A stretch of DNA of 64,000 nucleotides from Nitrosopumilus sp. (GCA_965197525.1 OZ240211.1:512001-576000); one strand, 5' to 3'. Positions 32,072-53,067 are shown, numbered from the stretch's first letter. Program-made: numbers and translations. The notes: generated by a model from the sequence alone, not told the origin.

Positions 32072-32335
32072 CTATCTCACTTTTTTAATTTGAAACGTAA
32101 TGGTGTTACCGTCTTTTGATAAATTCAGTAATTCATGACCGTTTCTAGTAACCCATCTTGAAATATCTTCCTCAGCTGCTGGATCATCAGCAGATACGGT
32201 TATTACCTGACCTACCTGCATCTTTTCAATCTCAATTTTTGTTCTAAATACAGGTTCAGGACAGAACAGTCCGGTTGCATCTAGTGTTTTTTCAGGCGAT
32301 TCTGACATGAACAGATGACAATATTGATTTGTCAT
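32072..32335 (-). CDS. tusA: TusA/SirA-family sulfurtransferase
   Basis: LDATGLFCPEP, DDPAAEEDI. Confidence 0.92.
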   Translation of the reverse strand: MTNQYCHLFMSESPEKTLDATGLFCPEPVFRTKIEIEKMQVGQVITVSADDPAAEEDISRWVTRNGHELLNLSKDGNTITFQIKKVR

Positions 32336-32375
32336 ATTAAAATCTATTTGAACGCTTTTGATGTCGCATTACAGC

Positions 32376-32516
32376 CATCACCATCATCACCATCATCACC
32401 ATCACCATCATCACCATCACCATCATCACCATCACCATCATCATCACCATCATCACCATCACCATCATCACCATCACCATCATCACCATCACCATCATCA
32501 TCACCATCATCACCAT
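32376..32516. repeat. (CAY)47 trinucleotide tract (poly-His in + frame)
   Basis: 47 consecutive CAT/CAC triplets between tusA and the PHP gene. Confidence 0.95.
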
Positions 32517-32616
32517 TCAACACTAAAACAAGTAGACAAGTCATCAAGTTAACAAAATTCAGATCTAAAATACTATATACGTTATAAACAACAAAACGTG
32601 ATTCAGTATTTTAAAT

Positions 32617-33531
32617 TTATAATGCCATTTTAAGGATGGTAGCAAGATTACGTTCCGCCATAAAACTAGGATCTTGATTTTGAAGATTAATCTTCTTGGA
32701 TATTCGGCTCATTGCATAAACAGAGATCTGGTAAAACAACGACCATAGATAGCTGCTTTGGTTCAAGTTATAAAGTCGTAGTAAGAATGCAAAAAGCCGT
32801 TTTTGTCGAGGGTAATGCTCAGAGACATACTCCAAGATATACTCTTTAGAATTATCAATCTTGTATTTGAGATGATCAAACACTTCAGTTTGTGATGTGT
32901 AGCCTGTTTGTGCGATCTTGATCTTACCTCTTTGCATAGCATGTAATACATCATCAATGTTATTCTCAGAGTCGATAACATTTACGCATCTTCCAAGAGT
33001 TGACAATACATGCGAATCACTACCTGCAACTTGAATCATGCCATTATCATGCGCAAACTGTAAAGCGCGTACATTTGAAAAGATGTCAATATTATTACTG
33101 TTAAACACCTCTATCATATCACATTGGTTAGCATTATCACGTAATGCATTAATTAGACCAAATGGATGTGGCGCAGAAGATACTGCATCCTGATCTCGTA
33201 TTGCGTCTAGAATCTCCTCAAAAGACAGACAAGGGGCAATAGCATCGTGGAGTCCATATGCCAAAACATGTTCACCTAAATCAGTAGTAATTTCCTCAGC
33301 TGCAAAAACATCCATGTTTTTGAATTTTTCATGTGTGTTTTTATATTCTAAAAGTTGTTTATACCCGTCAAGAGTGTTATGGTTTGTGACAAAGACTGCA
33401 TCTAATCCTTGATTGTAAGAATACTCTAATTGATCACGAATAGAGATCGGGCAGTCGTACTGCGGCTCTTCATCACCAACATGAAAATTTGAAAAAGAGT
33501 TATGGCAATGTAACTCAGTATTAATTGGCAT
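32617..33531 (-). CDS. PHP-domain protein
   Basis: ELHCHN, VTNHN, EEI, HPF, EVFN, GSDSH. Confidence 0.9.
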   Translation of the reverse strand: MPINTELHCHNSFSNFHVGDEEPQYDCPISIRDQLEYSYNQGLDAVFVTNHNTLDGYKQLLEYKNTHEKFKNMDVFAAEEITTDLGEHVLAYGLHDAIAPCLSFEEILDAIRDQDAVSSAPHPFGLINALRDNANQCDMIEVFNSNNIDIFSNVRALQFAHDNGMIQVAGSDSHVLSTLGRCVNVIDSENNIDDVLHAMQRGKIKIAQTGYTSQTEVFDHLKYKIDNSKEYILEYVSEHYPRQKRLFAFLLRLYNLNQSSYLWSLFYQISVYAMSRISKKINLQNQDPSFMAERNLATILKMAL

Positions 33532-33580
33532 TTATTAATAATATACGCTTTAAGATTATAACTTTTGTTAATTAAAAAAA

Positions 33581-35217
33581 GGGAATTACATACTTGGATT
33601 ACATTATACGCCACTTATTTATAATACACCGATTATTAACTGGATGGAAAAAGAAATAGGAGATTTTATTTATAGAACAGTGATTGTAAAACCAAGGCAG
33701 ACAAAAGAACTGTCATTGAAGGCACGCAGGATTGCAAACTTTCAGACGTATTTTTTCAACATGGACGTAGAGGCAGGACTGGTTGAAAAATATGACAAAA
33801 TCAAGACAAGCCGTACCATTACTGACATACATCACACCATGCCATGGAGCAACAAATACCACACCAATGTGGCAACAACTGCGTTCCAACAGGGGCATGA
33901 TACGGCAGACAAACATTTGAAATCTTGCGCAAAAAAACGTAGGGTACGAAACTGGGCAAAAAAGACTGGCGGTAAGAACCACAACTGGCACACATCATTT
34001 AAAAATCTCAAACCAAACAAATGGATTGACAGAAACAGTTTGTTCAGAAACGCCAAAAATGCAAAACATGCATCCATAACAGTAAACGGTCAGAATCCCT
34101 CGCTAAGGATGGGAAAGTGGAAAAAACTGTACATGAACCTGCCCGGTATGGGCCAGGTGGAGCTGTTGTCGTCTTTGAAGAGTCTTCCAAAGCAACTGGT
34201 ATGTGAAAGAGACAAAAACAATACCAACAAGTTCTACCAGACCAACATTGTGTCATACAGGCTTGTAGAGAACACCAAAAAAATCACTGTCAATACAAAC
34301 GATTCGAACCGCACGTTTGAGATCCATCTGACACTAAAAATACAGAGACCTAAAAATACGGATCGTGCAGTCGTATGCGGAATAGACATGGGAGTTAGGA
34401 AATCCCTGGTAGTTCATGACGGAATAAACACCGATTTTTACAGGACGCCTTATACCTGTAGGAGAAAAAAAGATGATGTGATCTCAAAACAACAGTCAAA
34501 AAGAGACGGTTACAAACTGCATAGTAACAGATGGAAACAAAATGATCGTAAATTGAAGAAGATGGAAAAAACACTCAGCAACAGAAGAACCGAGCACAAT
34601 AATTTCCTTGCCAAACAGATTGTGATGAGAACAGGAGTAATAGTCATGGAAAAACTAAACATTGGCAATATGACTGCAAAAAATGAAAAGTGGAAAAGCG
34701 GCCTTAACAGGGAGATTTACGGGGCAGGTATGGGAAGAATGGGAAAGAGAATAAAAATGACTGCCGAAAACCATGGAACCAAAACGCTTGAGATTGTTCC
34801 ACATTACACCAGCATAACGTGTAGTAGGTGCAATATGATCAACTGTGACTCTAGAACTACAAGGGATGTGTTTCAATGCGTATACTGTGGATTTCTGTGC
34901 GATGCAGACGATAACGCAGGCGCAAACATCAGACATTACGGACTTCCGTGCATACGAAGGCTCCCGCTTGTAGACAGATATGGAAACTACAGGTATGACA
35001 GCATGGAAAATATTATTTTAGCTAATAAAAATGGCACATCTAATAGTGTCAGTGTTATTAGTGGCGGTAGGGATTATCGTCACAAGACAGAAGAATCAAA
35101 ACATGGCTTACACCATGTTGTTTCTAAAAAAGACGGCAAGAACCAAGCTGTGAATGATTTGTTGGACTGTCAGAAAAAAACCTTGGTGCAGAAACGTAAC
35201 CTAGGTATATAATTCCC
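33581..35217 (+). mobile_element. Family-2 element (1637 bp): tnpB between 17-bp TIRs with 8-bp TSD TAAAAAAA
   Basis: Left GGGAATTACATACTTGG, right reverse complement GGGAATTATATACCTAG (14/17). TSD at 33573-33580 and 35218-35225. The same ends recur at 50158-50543. Confidence 0.9.
33644..35212 (+). CDS. tnpB: TnpB/Cas12f-like RuvC nuclease (522 aa), catalytic residues intact
   Basis: CGIDMG, IVMEKL, CSRC/CVYC, DADDNAGANI. Stop codon lies inside the right TIR. Confidence 0.93.
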   Translation: MEKEIGDFIYRTVIVKPRQTKELSLKARRIANFQTYFFNMDVEAGLVEKYDKIKTSRTITDIHHTMPWSNKYHTNVATTAFQQGHDTADKHLKSCAKKRRVRNWAKKTGGKNHNWHTSFKNLKPNKWIDRNSLFRNAKNAKHASITVNGQNPSLRMGKWKKLYMNLPGMGQVELLSSLKSLPKQLVCERDKNNTNKFYQTNIVSYRLVENTKKITVNTNDSNRTFEIHLTLKIQRPKNTDRAVVCGIDMGVRKSLVVHDGINTDFYRTPYTCRRKKDDVISKQQSKRDGYKLHSNRWKQNDRKLKKMEKTLSNRRTEHNNFLAKQIVMRTGVIVMEKLNIGNMTAKNEKWKSGLNREIYGAGMGRMGKRIKMTAENHGTKTLEIVPHYTSITCSRCNMINCDSRTTRDVFQCVYCGFLCDADDNAGANIRHYGLPCIRRLPLVDRYGNYRYDSMENIILANKNGTSNSVSVISGGRDYRHKTEESKHGLHHVVSKKDGKNQAVNDLLDCQKKTLVQKRNLGI

Positions 35218-35234
35218 TAAAAAAAAATAATGTA

Positions 35235-48903: not shown

Positions 48904-50154
48904 ATGGTAAATACAAATTCGGTTATAGGTGGAAGTATCGGGGCAATAATGATAATTGCGCTAGTTGTAACTGTGTTTGTTGCACCTCCAGAATCGATGA
49001 GAACGGTCATAAATGATTATGGTGATGATGATGATGATTATAATGATATAGACGATGTAACGGTTAATGCAATCAAAAATGAGAGCATGCTAAAAGATGA
49101 AATTAAAGCACTCAAAGGCGAGATTGAGGCATTAAGCAAAATAACAACAGTAACGGCAAAAGATGAAGGCAAATTATCGTTAATTGAGATCTTTGAGAGA
49201 TCAGAACCGAGCGTAGTCAGCGTCAATGTACATAGAAATCAGACTACAAACATAATAAATGACAATGGCGGTAACAGCCTAGGCTCAGGTTTTGTATTTG
49301 ACATAGAAGGGTACATAATAACAAACGAGCATGTTGTAACGAATGCAACAAAGATAGTAATAACATTTCTTGACGGCAGAGAATACAATGCAGAGATTAT
49401 AGGATATGATGCAGACACAGATATTGCAGTACTCAAAGTTAATTCAGAGTTAGCATCACTGCGTCCACTGATCATAGGAGATTCATCAGAGCTCAAAGTT
49501 GGAGAGACGATAGCTGCGATTGGAAATCCGTTTGGACTATCAGGTTCGATGACATCAGGGATTGTAAGTCAGTTAGAAAGACTGCTTCCGGCAGAATCAG
49601 GATTTTCAATTCCGGGCATAATCCAGACAGATGCTGCAATTAATCCAGGAAATTCAGGAGGGCCGCTGCTCAACTTGTACGGAGAGGTAGTTGGTATCAA
49701 CACTGCAATACAGTCAACTACAGGGGAGTTTACAGGCGTGGGGTTCGCAATACCTTCACAGACAGTCTCCAAGATTGTTCCCAGACTCATAGAGGAAGGA
49801 GAGTACAAACATCCATGGATCGGGATCTCAGGCAGAGATATTGATCCAGACCTAGCGAAAGCGTTGAATCTAAAAGAGGCAGTAGGGTTTCTCATAATTA
49901 CAGTCGTGGAGGATAGTCCTGCATACAAAGCAGGTTTGATAGGTTCTGACCAAACAGTAGAGATTGACGGAGTCGCTCATACAATAGGAGGAGATATAAT
50001 TATAGCAGTAGACGGAATCGAAGTAAGAAAGATTGATGATATCTTAGTTCATCTGCAGGGGACAAAGGCAGTAGGAGATGAGATGGTATTGGAGGTTCTC
50101 AGAGACGGAAGAACAACAGAGATTACAGTTTTGTTACAGGCAAGACCCGGTTAA
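48904..50154 (+). CDS. HtrA/DegP-type serine protease with PDZ domain
   Basis: TNEHVV, DIAVLK, TDAAINPGNSGGPL, PDZ. Its stop codon lies in the MITE TSD. Confidence 0.95.
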   Translation: MVNTNSVIGGSIGAIMIIALVVTVFVAPPESMRTVINDYGDDDDDYNDIDDVTVNAIKNESMLKDEIKALKGEIEALSKITTVTAKDEGKLSLIEIFERSEPSVVSVNVHRNQTTNIINDNGGNSLGSGFVFDIEGYIITNEHVVTNATKIVITFLDGREYNAEIIGYDADTDIAVLKVNSELASLRPLIIGDSSELKVGETIAAIGNPFGLSGSMTSGIVSQLERLLPAESGFSIPGIIQTDAAINPGNSGGPLLNLYGEVVGINTAIQSTTGEFTGVGFAIPSQTVSKIVPRLIEEGEYKHPWIGISGRDIDPDLAKALNLKEAVGFLIITVVEDSPAYKAGLIGSDQTVEIDGVAHTIGGDIIIAVDGIEVRKIDDILVHLQGTKAVGDEMVLEVLRDGRTTEITVLLQARPG

Positions 50155-50157
50155 CAT

Positions 50158-50543
50158 GGGAATTATATACCTAGGTTACGTTTCTGCACCAAGGTTTTTT
50201 TCTGACAGTCCAACAAATCATTCACAGCTTCCTGTTGGAACGCAGTTGTTGCCACATTGGTGTGGTATTTGTTGCTCCATGGCATGGTGTGATGTATGGT
50301 AGTAATGGTACGGCTTGTCTTGATTTTGTCATATTTTTCAACCAGTCCTGCCTCTACGCCCATGTTGAAAAAATACGTCTGAAAGTTTGCAATCTTGCGT
50401 GCCTTTAATGACAGTTCTTTTGTCTGCCTTGGTTTTACAATCACTGTTCTATAAATAAAATCTTTTATTTCTTTTTCCATCCAGTTAATAATCGGTGTAT
50501 TATATATAATTGACGTATAATGTAATCCAAGTATGTAATTCCC
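50158..50543 (-). mobile_element. Family-2 MITE (386 bp), internal-deletion derivative of 33581-35217, 8-bp TSD GTTAACAT
   Basis: Same TIRs as the parent. TSD at 50150-50157 and 50544-50551. ORF 50163-50480 is the N-terminal 84 aa fused in frame to the C-terminal 21 aa of the 522-aa TnpB. Confidence 0.93.
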
Positions 50544-50552
50544 GTTAACATA

Positions 50553-51852
50553 CAGTAGTCGGAAATGTACCCATTAGGCAGGTTTTCCGACATCATACGG
50601 TTGACCCACCATCCTACATAATTCCAATGCAGCCATTGCTGTAGCATATACGACAAGTGCCAAAGTCACACGATCATAACTCGAATCTGCACGATACTGC
50701 TCCACTGCCCACGCGTTGTACATGAACAGCGAGACGTAAAACATGATTACCCTAAACGACGCATTGCGGCTTGTTGTCCTCGGGCGTACCTGCTCGACTT
50801 GCTTGTATCCTGTCTCTATCCCCCACCTTCTCCGGTACTCCTCCGGAAGCGTCTCAATCTCGTCTAGTGCCCTGGTAGGAGAAAGATTGGTGGCAAAGAC
50901 ATGATATCTTTCCGTGGTATTGACATCAGGATCGTCTATCTTTTTTGAGGGTGTGATTATCAATGTGAATGTGACAGACTGGCCTGCTGCGTTTCTGACG
51001 GTGTACTGCGAGACTGCCTTGCGTAATTTATCGTGATGCTCTTGTATCATCCTCTTTATCCCCGTGTTCTTGACTGCAGGCATCAGGAACTTGCGTCCGT
51101 GTTCTGATACAAGTTTGATTATCTCAGTCGAGTAAAACTCGCGGTCCATCAGCAGCAACCGGGCCCGTATCCTGTAATCCACGAGTTTTTGGACGAATTT
51201 ACGCACAAAGTCGGCGTCATCCACGCTGCGCGTGACCTGCATGCACTCTAAAATGGCCGGAACCTGTTCTGCTACCACATGCATTGTTGCGTAACACTCG
51301 AACTTGCTTGTACCGCCCTTTGGTTTGGATCTTGTCAGATGTGACATGTTGTCCTTGTCGTGCCTTGGTATCAGGTGTTTATCTATTGCTACTAGTACGC
51401 CCCCCTTGTACCGGCACGTATTCTTGGCAAGCCTTGCGGTGCGTGTGATCATATCCATGCAGAGCTCGTCTGCACTGTCTGATTCCAGCGAGTTTATCAT
51501 GTTGCGAAACCACTTGGGCGACGGCATCTTCTTTTTGGCGTGCTTGAGCAGCCGGATTGCCTCCTCAGAAGCTATGTTGGATTCAGACATCTTCATCAGT
51601 ATGGCTGCAAACTCGCTTACCCCGTATTGGGCATTGTTCCTCGTAGAGAATCCTATGGGTGCAGACTCTAGTATTCCTGACAAGGTATTAAGTATCCTTT
51701 CTCCAATCTTATTGTGGTGTACCTGCCCACCTTTTTGCGTTAACACTAAGGTGGGTAAGGGCACTGTAGGTAATAGATCAGTATGTTCGAAGAATGTTAA
51801 CATAATTGAGAACATCTGTTGGTTGATTTAGGGAGTACATTTCCGACTACTG
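50553..51852 (-). mobile_element. ISH3-family insertion sequence (1300 bp)
   Basis: Perfect 18-bp TIR CAGTAGTCGGAAATGTAC and 5-bp TSD ACATA (50548-50552 / 51853-51857). Higher GC than host. Confidence 0.92.
50574..51815 (-). CDS. ISH3/IS4-type DDE transposase
   Basis: VAIDKH, LLMDREF, YRRRWGIETGYK (YREK motif). Confidence 0.92.
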   Translation of the reverse strand: MFSIMLTFFEHTDLLPTVPLPTLVLTQKGGQVHHNKIGERILNTLSGILESAPIGFSTRNNAQYGVSEFAAILMKMSESNIASEEAIRLLKHAKKKMPSPKWFRNMINSLESDSADELCMDMITRTARLAKNTCRYKGGVLVAIDKHLIPRHDKDNMSHLTRSKPKGGTSKFECYATMHVVAEQVPAILECMQVTRSVDDADFVRKFVQKLVDYRIRARLLLMDREFYSTEIIKLVSEHGRKFLMPAVKNTGIKRMIQEHHDKLRKAVSQYTVRNAAGQSVTFTLIITPSKKIDDPDVNTTERYHVFATNLSPTRALDEIETLPEEYRRRWGIETGYKQVEQVRPRTTSRNASFRVIMFYVSLFMYNAWAVEQYRADSSYDRVTLALVVYATAMAALELCRMVGQPYDVGKPA

Positions 51853-51897
51853 ACATAGAATACAAGCATAAATACGACCAAGCAAGAGAAGATTCTG

Positions 51898-53067
51898 TTG
51901 AACAATCTTGTCTTAAAATCAGAATATCTGAACAATGTCTTAGAAGATAAAGCAATATCCAAACAGCACATATTTGAGATCTATAGCAAAGCAGTAACTG
52001 ATCCTCAGGAGCTGTTCCTGACTGCACAGAATTTGAGAATAAAATTCAAAAATAGAACAGTGACATTCTCAAAGAAAGCATTTTTCAACATTGTAAATCT
52101 TTGCAGAGATACATGTACGTATTGCACATACAAAGCAGAGCCCAAAGATACAAAGCTCTCTCTGATGTCAAAACAACAGATATCGGATTTATTACACTTG
52201 GCAAAAAAATACAGATGTGTGGAAGCTCTATTTGTAACAGGAGAACGGCCAGAGCAGAGATACCAGCTAGCACGAGATTGGTTAAGAGATAATGGTTTTA
52301 AGACAACAGCAGAATATCTAATTCATGCATCAGAGATGGCATTAGAGGAGGGGTTATTCCCACATACAAATGCAGGTAATCTGAATTTTGAAGAGATGAA
52401 GGAGCTAAAGAAGACCAATGTATCGATGGGTATAATGCTTGAAAATACAAGCAAGAGACTAACCTACAAAGGAATGCCTCATCACATGGCACCTAGTAAG
52501 AGACCAGATACAAGATTAGAGATTTTAGAGAATGCGGGAAGATTGAAGATTCCAATGACTACAGGCGTCCTTGTAGGAATCGGTGAGACAGCCAATGAGA
52601 TAATCGATTCGTTATTTGAGATAAAGAGATTAGACAAAGAATACGGAAATATTCAAGAAGTAATTTTACAAAACTTTCAACCAAAGCCAGATACATTGAT
52701 GAATGACAAACAGGCAGCTGATCAAAATTACTTCAAAATAGTAGTTGCATTGGCAAGAATCATCATGCCACAGATGAACATACAAATTCCACCGAATCTA
52801 TCTCCTGAATCATATCATAGTTTTCTCTCAGTTGGAATAAATGACTGGGGAGGTATATCACCACTGACTCCAGATTTTGTAAATCCTGAATTTTCTTGGC
52901 CTGAGATAAACAGAGTTGACAGATATTCAAGGAAGGCAGGATTTGAACTCCAGTGCAGATTTCCAGTATATCCAGAGTTCTTTCCTCTAATCGGTAAAGG
53001 GTTGATGGAGAAGATATCAGTCATCAAAGATAATAAAGGATTTGTAAGGGAATCTTATTGGAGATGA
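51898..53067 (+). CDS. cofG: FO synthase subunit CofG
   Basis: VTFSKK, CRDTCTYC, PHTNAG, TTGVLVGIGE, IQEVILQNF, DWGGISP. Confidence 0.95.
   Translation: MNNLVLKSEYLNNVLEDKAISKQHIFEIYSKAVTDPQELFLTAQNLRIKFKNRTVTFSKKAFFNIVNLCRDTCTYCTYKAEPKDTKLSLMSKQQISDLLHLAKKYRCVEALFVTGERPEQRYQLARDWLRDNGFKTTAEYLIHASEMALEEGLFPHTNAGNLNFEEMKELKKTNVSMGIMLENTSKRLTYKGMPHHMAPSKRPDTRLEILENAGRLKIPMTTGVLVGIGETANEIIDSLFEIKRLDKEYGNIQEVILQNFQPKPDTLMNDKQAADQNYFKIVVALARIIMPQMNIQIPPNLSPESYHSFLSVGINDWGGISPLTPDFVNPEFSWPEINRVDRYSRKAGFELQCRFPVYPEFFPLIGKGLMEKISVIKDNKGFVRESYWR

Follow-up and report, generated by a model that had tools for sequence, protein, structure and literature searches.

TnpB, the ancestor of Cas12, serves the IS605 and IS607 insertion sequences (ISs) by restoring the element after its scarless excision. 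Elements of the IS200/IS605 and IS607 groups have neither inverted ends nor duplications (PMC13565253). TnpBs within DDE-type transposons have been known since 2023, when Altae-Tran et al. (2023, PNAS; PMC10691335) distinguished the DDE-associated branches DDE-1 to DDE-6 and reported solo TnpBs with the same ends, for which mobilization in trans was proposed. These TnpBs lie between the terminal inverted repeats (TIRs) of DDE transposons, the 3' end of tnpB is at most 250 bp from the transposon end, and the text of that paper names IS630 as a partner. A 2026 review gives ISL2, IS630, and IS1031 as partner families and describes how, in Fanzor-carrying elements, the 3'-end guide RNA reads over the inverted repeat (PMC13565253). 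Among the papers returned by full-text literature searches and judged by title and abstract, none describes a TnpB paired with IS1595 or ISXO2. Here, we describe a 1,637-bp tnpB element in a 64,000-nt window, the whole stretch of DNA analyzed, which spans positions 512001 to 576000 of a single 2.21-Mb contig (39.6% G+C) of Nitrosopumilus sp., a probably sponge-associated, ammonia-oxidizing archaeon of the Nitrosopumilaceae. The element is likely a nonautonomous member of the IS1595 lineage in which the transposase gene has been replaced by a module of tnpB and its omega RNA.

The locus resembles each of these systems in part. As in the DDE-associated systems, tnpB lies between DDE-transposon TIRs and ends close to the transposon end; in contrast to DDE-1 to DDE-6, the host is archaeal and the insertions lie on the promoter side of host genes. 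This promoter-side position is the newest piece of the present description. With the IS1595 family, the element has in common its 8-bp target site duplication (TSD) and its GGnnATTAT termini, and its relatives there encode a transposase with a zinc ribbon and an ISXO2-like DDE domain, some together with extra genes. Unlike that family, the element has no transposase, and tnpB occupies the space between the ends. It shares a TnpB-family nuclease inside a DDE-type transposon with TIRs and TSDs with the Fanzor-carrying eukaryotic transposons (Mariner, hAT, MuDR, and others), from which it differs in its prokaryotic protein with the canonical RuvC glutamate position and in its 8-bp TSD, whose variable sequence cannot itself be a fixed target-adjacent motif (TAM). 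IS200/IS605 (IS1341-type) and IS607 elements likewise have this type of nuclease and a structured RNA that covers the tnpB 3' end, whereas the element described here has inverted ends, TSDs, and no linked Y1 or serine recombinase. The features of the element are as follows (window coordinates).

33573-33580: left copy of the 8-bp TSD, TAAAAAAA, read from the sequence and present as a single copy at the empty site (run X5)
33581-35217: TnpB element, 1,637 bp, read directly from the sequence, with GGGAATTAYATAC in inverted orientation as its ends
33581-33604, plus strand: left TIR, beginning GGGAATTACATAC
33617-33624, plus strand: TATA-like run TTTATAAT, 19 nt 5' of the tnpB ATG
33644-35212, plus strand: tnpB, 522 amino acids, the sole long open reading frame (ORF) of the element, with the RuvC residues D248/E336/D422 and the CxxC...CxxC zinc finger intact
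35061-35171, plus strand: conserved RNA structure, presumed omega-RNA scaffold, five helices and 32 pairs, overlapping the last ~50 codons
35194-35217, minus strand: right TIR, beginning GGGAATTATATAC when read inward and holding the tnpB stop codon
35218-35225: right copy of the TSD, TAAAAAAA, read from the sequence
50158-50543, minus strand: deletion derivative, 386 bp (50150-50551 with its TSDs), with its own TSD GTTAACAT at 50150-50157 and 50544-50551

An initial annotation of the window had proposed a catalytically intact TnpB between TIRs, with the stop codon inside one TIR and an 8-bp TSD at both copies in the window. Each part of this is confirmed: the TAA at 35210-35212 falls in the right end, and both the TAAAAAAA and the GTTAACAT pairs are perfect. 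The TIRs are 24 nt long and imperfect, agreeing at ~16 of the first 20 positions. The 64 kb contain four occurrences of their 13-nt end motif (0.2 expected), a count reached in none of 100 shuffles. The 386-bp copy consists of element positions 1 to 313 fused to 1565 to 1637 and is therefore an internal-deletion derivative; it is devoid of tnpB and of most of the RNA scaffold. The internal run TTTATAAT is a possible promoter of tnpB itself.

The 522-amino-acid protein matches PF01385 (OrfB_IS605; 46.4 bits, cutoff of 30.5), PF07282 (Cas12f1-like_TNB; 46.5 bits, cutoff of 26.3), and the NCBIfam model NF040570 (guided_TnpB; 110.5 bits, cutoff of 100). D248, E336, and D422 of the RuvC triad and C393, C396, C412, and C415 of the zinc finger are invariant across 16 homologues, and all seven residues line up with the motifs of TnpBs whose structures have been solved. 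By its residues, the protein is thus identified as a catalytically intact TnpB, in agreement with the earlier claim. TnpB is under purifying selection, with a ratio of nonsynonymous to synonymous substitution rates (dN/dS) of 0.10 to 0.25 over codons 1 to 470. No Y1 or serine recombinase gene was found in or beside any of the copies examined.

The pattern of substitution changes at the 3' end of the gene. In codons 471 to 522, synonymous change is reduced four- to ninefold and dN/dS rises to 0.5 to 1.3; over these last 52 codons, the synonymous rate (dS) falls from 1.2 to 0.14 in comparison with homologue L038 and from 0.13 to 0.03 among the resident copies. Low dS together with a raised dN/dS is characteristic of a gene overlapped by a functional RNA. 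Even at 42% protein identity, nucleotide-level conservation persists over the final ~170 nt of the element, and RNAalifold folds an alignment of eight sequences into the five helices and 32 pairs listed above. In this alignment, 94% of the cells are paired and 10 of the 32 pairs show compensatory changes, a result equaled by none of 500 shuffles, whereas slid partners are 30 to 43% paired; the contrast is somewhat inflated, as folding and counting drew on the same eight sequences. No Rfam family matches the element. The structured and constrained ~110 to 160 nt at the 3' end fit an omega-RNA scaffold.

The element has reached at least six full-length sites in this genome, besides the deletion derivative, and at least five of the further copies have 8-bp TSDs of their own. 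The copies, and a miniature element with the same type of ends, are listed below (contig coordinates).

545581: window copy, TSD TAAAAAAA
879513: full-length copy, TSD AATTCAAT
1029182: full-length copy, TSD TGATTTAG
874687: full-length copy with slight end mutations, TSD AATCAATT
33714 / 50591-52173: copy divided by a large insertion, TSD CTACTGAA
1330018-1332960: interrupted copy
1612198: decayed copy
891809-891973: miniature inverted-repeat transposable element (MITE), 165 bp, ends GGGGATTATATA of the family found on the TnpB cassettes, 8-bp TSD TTTCATAT

Perfect 8-bp TSDs flank the element at five resident sites and at least six sites in other assemblies, so that the additional TSD-flanked copies, whose absence, together with that of an autonomous element, had been named beforehand as speaking against the annotation, are present both within and outside this genome. 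In addition, a contig of DNA from a related organism, sequenced in a separate study, connects window position 33572 directly to 35218. The 1,645 nt skipped correspond to the element plus one TSD copy, and 8 nt at the junction are compatible with both sides; the contig thus carries the exact empty site, which is independent proof of the insertion. The same run contains a complete copy at another place, flanked by GCCATATG. The window element is a discrete, real, mobile, and well-defined insertion. The resident copies are ~95% identical to each other. Those at 545581, 874687, 879513, 1029182, and 50591 (~5% divergence, dS of ~0.13) all have the full 522-amino-acid frame, with a dN/dS of ~0.2. 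These intact frames in diverged copies suggest either selection on the TnpB of each copy after insertion or repeated invasion.

Homologues were found only by searching the protein collection and whole genomes; scans with the family alignment returned one weak, unrelated match in the genome contig collection and nothing in the metagenome contig collection. Relatives of >40% identity number only ~17 in the protein collection, all from metagenome assemblies, and the next matches are ordinary TnpBs of at most 29% identity. Eight of the homologue loci, with protein identities down to 42%, have GGGRMTTAYATA ends, and six of these have perfect 8-bp TSDs (TTGAATTT, TCATGTCT, TTTTATTT, TTTATCTT, TGAATTTT, and TAATTCGT). 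In a genome of the same genus (G018), 1,503-bp elements with 26-nt inverted ends beginning GGGAATTATATAC and 8-bp TSDs encode a 32%-identical TnpB; there are four copies, two of which are ~100% identical and located at different sites. As a separate observation, N6/N4 DNA methyltransferase genes adjoin the homologous cassettes L036, L038, L078, L079, and L107 on metagenome contigs, and at L107 the methyltransferase gene is the divergent left neighbor.

The element holds tnpB and an RNA scaffold but no transposase; its transposase is therefore probably borrowed. The termini point to the IS1595 family as the lender. The element ends fit the GGnnATTAT pattern that ISfinder gives for the ISNwi1 group (8-bp TSD, DDEK-type motif, and forms with passenger genes), to which the element may provisionally be assigned. 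The genome encodes two IS1595-family transposases (NF033547, 154 and 138 bits; PF12762, 115 and 119 bits).

338464-339324 (contig coordinates): type A transposase, end GGTGATTATAAAGG
615175-616176 (contig coordinates): type B transposase, full length (333 amino acids), zinc ribbon and DDE domain, ~39 to 40 kb past the end of the window (NF033547, 154 bits; PF12762, 115 bits)

Complete relatives of type A in genomes of the same genus measure 906 to 909 bp and have 8-bp TSDs. For type B, autonomous elements bounded by GGGAATTAT at both termini were found in two genomes of the same archaeal family: a 2,131-bp IS in G294 (two copies with perfect 8-bp TSDs, AAAATTAT and AAAAAAAT), which also carries an extra ORF of 93 amino acids, and a 1,280-bp IS in G315 (two copies with perfect 8-bp TSDs, CCCGGCCG and CAATGGGG). 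Their transposases (NF033547/PF12762) are 58 to 64% identical to the resident type B protein, and their terminal 10 to 13 nt are those of the TnpB cassette. Seven further type B homologue genes in three other genomes of the archaeal family have a GGGAATTATATAC-type end 56 to 62 bp 5' of the start codon; in G166, G062, and G169, the transposase copies had no definable right end. In the resident genome, a cassette-type end is found upstream of a type B transposase gene twice. The nearest matching end, GGGGATTATATACATGGGTATAC, is located ~1 kb upstream of the type B gene with a tRNA-Leu gene between them, and this arrangement is repeated beside a truncated copy. Between the end of the TnpB element and the end linked to the type B gene, 17 to 18 of 24 positions agree. 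The type B gene has a replaced 5' region, its first codons (MNARQ.RGQ) and upstream region being common to it and an IS6-like gene (615175-616176 and 922604-923728, respectively). A comparable rearrangement is seen in G018, where an ORF joins an IS1595-type N-terminal half to an IS6-like segment; the transposase genes of these genomes look recombined.

The assignment of the ends and the 8-bp TSD to the IS1595 family, made tentatively in the initial annotation, thus finds its match in the autonomous elements of G294 and G315. An autonomous element of the kind that it proposed to seek with the TIRs is present in those two genomes; in the Nitrosopumilus genome itself, no intact one with both ends was found.

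The position of the insertions relative to host genes was analyzed by aligning 22 insertion sites on the left end, that is, the 5' side of tnpB. At -26 to -19 from this end, the sites show the consensus TATATAAA, with an A at -21 in 20 of them. A simple motif defined for testing was found in the left flank of 15 and in the right flank of 2 of the 22 sites (Fisher P = 6e-5, an optimistic value, as the motif was chosen post hoc). At the window copy, the host features concerned are the following (window coordinates).

33555-33562, minus strand: host TATA box, ATTATAAC on the plus strand, located -26 to -19 relative to the left end, facing the PHP-domain gene
32617-33531, minus strand: divergent host gene, 304 amino acids, PHP-like by sequence motifs, with its start codon 49 bp from the left end

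Archaeal promoters contain a transcription factor B recognition element (BRE), an A-rich stretch that precedes the TATA box. The TTTATATA on the opposite strand, following an A-rich stretch, reads as such a BRE/TATA promoter directed away from the element. At eight loci with unrelated neighbors (the window copy, the 1029-kb copy, L037, L082, L084, L107, L108, and L109), the start of the divergent gene is located 47 to 49 bp from the left end. The same motif is found at the 165-bp MITE and at the two ends linked to the type B transposase gene. Since the MITE has no tnpB and still occupies this promoter-side position, the position is a property of the ends and transposase system rather than of tnpB in cis. 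At seven autonomous IS1595 copies in other genomes (four type B and three type A), a fixed-offset TATA box was not clear, although these numbers are too small to weigh. A long simple repeat, which reads as His-, Ser/Pro-, or Asp/Gly-rich runs depending on the frame, is found just 3' of the PHP-like gene (window 32315-32590).

We tentatively propose that insertion may be directed by the machinery that initiates transcription in archaea, or by the signature of that machinery in the DNA, to ~5 bp upstream of the BRE/TATA of a leaderless gene, with tnpB outward. The same position could also arise by tolerance alone, with no targeting, if a compact genome can be interrupted harmlessly only in the few bases that separate a promoter from the gene upstream of it. 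The window copy lends itself to this explanation, given that the empty intergenic space measures only ~58 bp and leaves few harmless positions. Nevertheless, the spacing varies by no more than ±1 bp among the eight loci despite their different neighbors and intergenic lengths, and tolerance alone does not predict a motif found in 15 of 22 flanks on one side and 2 of 22 on the other. We consider tolerance as the sole determinant somewhat unlikely; the constant spacing and orientation favor targeting over selection in a compact genome.

Taken with the likely IS1595 origin of the cassette, these data lead to the following model. An IS1595-type DDE transposase acting in trans, for which the 333-amino-acid gene at 615175-616176 is the candidate in this genome, would bind the ends, make an 8-bp staggered cut in the target, and move the cassette. 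A transcript running through tnpB would cross the right end and yield an omega RNA whose guide consists of the TSD and the right flank; if the omega RNA reads through in this way, the guide would begin with the 8 nt of the right TSD copy. TnpB and its omega RNA may then cut the site emptied by excision, with repair from a sister copy restoring the element. Insertion, or the survival of insertions, would be linked to the upstream border of the host's BRE/TATA promoters, with tnpB always outward. A variant that assigns the 8-bp staggered cut downstream of the TATA-like motif to TnpB itself was rejected because the sequences from motif to TSD differ at every site, and such differing target sequences cannot all match a single guide.

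Several observations weigh against this model. The resident genome has no transposase between two intact GGGAATTAT ends. Two other genomes of the genus with such cassettes, G002 and G018, yielded no intact IS1595 transposase either: G018 has a single chimeric IS1595 fragment, yet two of its cassette copies are ~100% identical at different sites, and G002 has none. The ~5% divergence of the resident copies implies that transposition in this genome was not recent. The positions immediately 5' of the TSD (-13 to -9) show no TAM-like motif, leaving the homing step without its expected signature. A sponge metatranscriptome contig covers window positions 35032 to 35218 followed by 250 nt of a different flank, which is compatible with, and at most hints at, read-through across the right end; contigs from RNA libraries may hold DNA, RNA ends, strand, and level cannot be read from this one, and the parts that it does not cover are uninformative. 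The nuclease activity, the ends of the omega RNA, and the transposition of the cassette are predictions from sequence.

The two ~100% identical copies in G018, each with its own site and TSD, alongside the lack of an intact IS1595 transposase in G018 and G002, are also what would be expected if the cassette were moved by something other than an IS1595 enzyme: another resident DDE transposase, one borne by a virus or plasmid, or a process involving TnpB itself. The genome is rich in other DDE families (IS630, IS4/IS5-like, IS3, IS6, and IS481-like), and the TnpB clade includes members with a very different long inverted end (TATAGCG...AAAGTTCGTGCA). However, none of ten other multicopy transposase families of this genome has GGGAATTAT-like ends, and all autonomous elements found with these termini encode an IS1595-family transposase. 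To our knowledge, TnpB is not known to integrate DNA, and nonautonomous elements commonly lose their autonomous partner after a burst. We therefore regard a mover from outside the IS1595 family as unlikely.

Even less probable, in our view, is that the copies are immobile relics and that the host has co-opted their TnpB, perhaps as an RNA-guided regulator or nuclease that works close to promoters. The persistence of intact genes over long times, as seen in the ~5% diverged copies with full frames and a dN/dS of ~0.2, would then be accounted for, and this reading would agree with their constant position beside host promoters and with a genome devoid of an intact autonomous partner. On the other hand, the catalytic triad is intact, unlike in the known nuclease-dead repressors derived from TnpB, and the empty site in a relative, together with insertion-site sets that differ between organisms, indicates recent mobility at the strain scale. 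The tnpB-less MITE in the same position likewise argues for a property of insertion rather than for a use of TnpB. An IS1595-lineage cassette mobilized in trans hence remains the reading that we prefer.

The same genome contains ~40 copies of another TnpB element, here termed family 1, in addition to the family of the window element (family 2). Family 1 elements are likewise tnpB-only cassettes with inverted ends and 8-bp TSDs, but their ends are IS6-like (GGTTCTGTTG / GGGGTTCTGTTGGGTTAAC) and unrelated to those of family 2, and the two TnpBs are only 22% identical over 237 residues of the RuvC half. A third TnpB family (1984842-1986191 in the contig) is 29% identical to family 2 and has its end type in common with it. 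In an unrooted tree of 42 proteins, including 21 ordinary TnpBs picked as family 2 matches, families 2 and 3 and the relatives from G018 and G002 group with TnpBs with TATAGCG-type ends (support of 95). Family 1 stands alone on a long branch, and the 21 ordinary TnpBs form a third group. The ~30-nt inverted ends of the TATAGCG...AAAGTTCGTGCA type bound further TnpB families of the family 2 clade (L027, L029, L030, L033, and L035, in G002 and G018).

The tree shows that families 1 and 2 are distant and distinct, which upholds the description of family 2 as a second TnpB lineage in the genome, its identity to family 1, its ends, and its well-supported tree group all being separate. The initial annotation had gone on to propose that two DDE systems captured tnpB independently under repeated selection. 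The distance and the different ends agree with independent capture, whereas an unrooted tree reveals neither the number of captures nor, with it, repeated selection. Family 2 belongs to a broader clade of archaeal TnpBs that generally have inverted ends; rather than a single capture event, this looks like a long coevolution between a TnpB lineage and these ends.

What a TnpB offers to a DDE transposon, which leaves behind a duplication and a break, is a question raised in recent reviews. With its defined ends, empty site, candidate transposase, RNA scaffold, and many independent sites, the lineage described here provides a compact natural test case, and the clade of 520-amino-acid archaeal TnpBs is a distinct source of small RNA-guided nucleases. 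The yeast elements Ty and Tf1 target the promoter side of genes as a "safe haven." If the promoter-side position of the cassettes does reflect targeting, it would be a prokaryotic counterpart of Ty and Tf1 targeting and a way of choosing targets that is new for a prokaryotic insertion sequence, with a target signal on one side only, where one would otherwise look for a TAM. Such targeting would also explain how these cassettes persist in very compact genomes.

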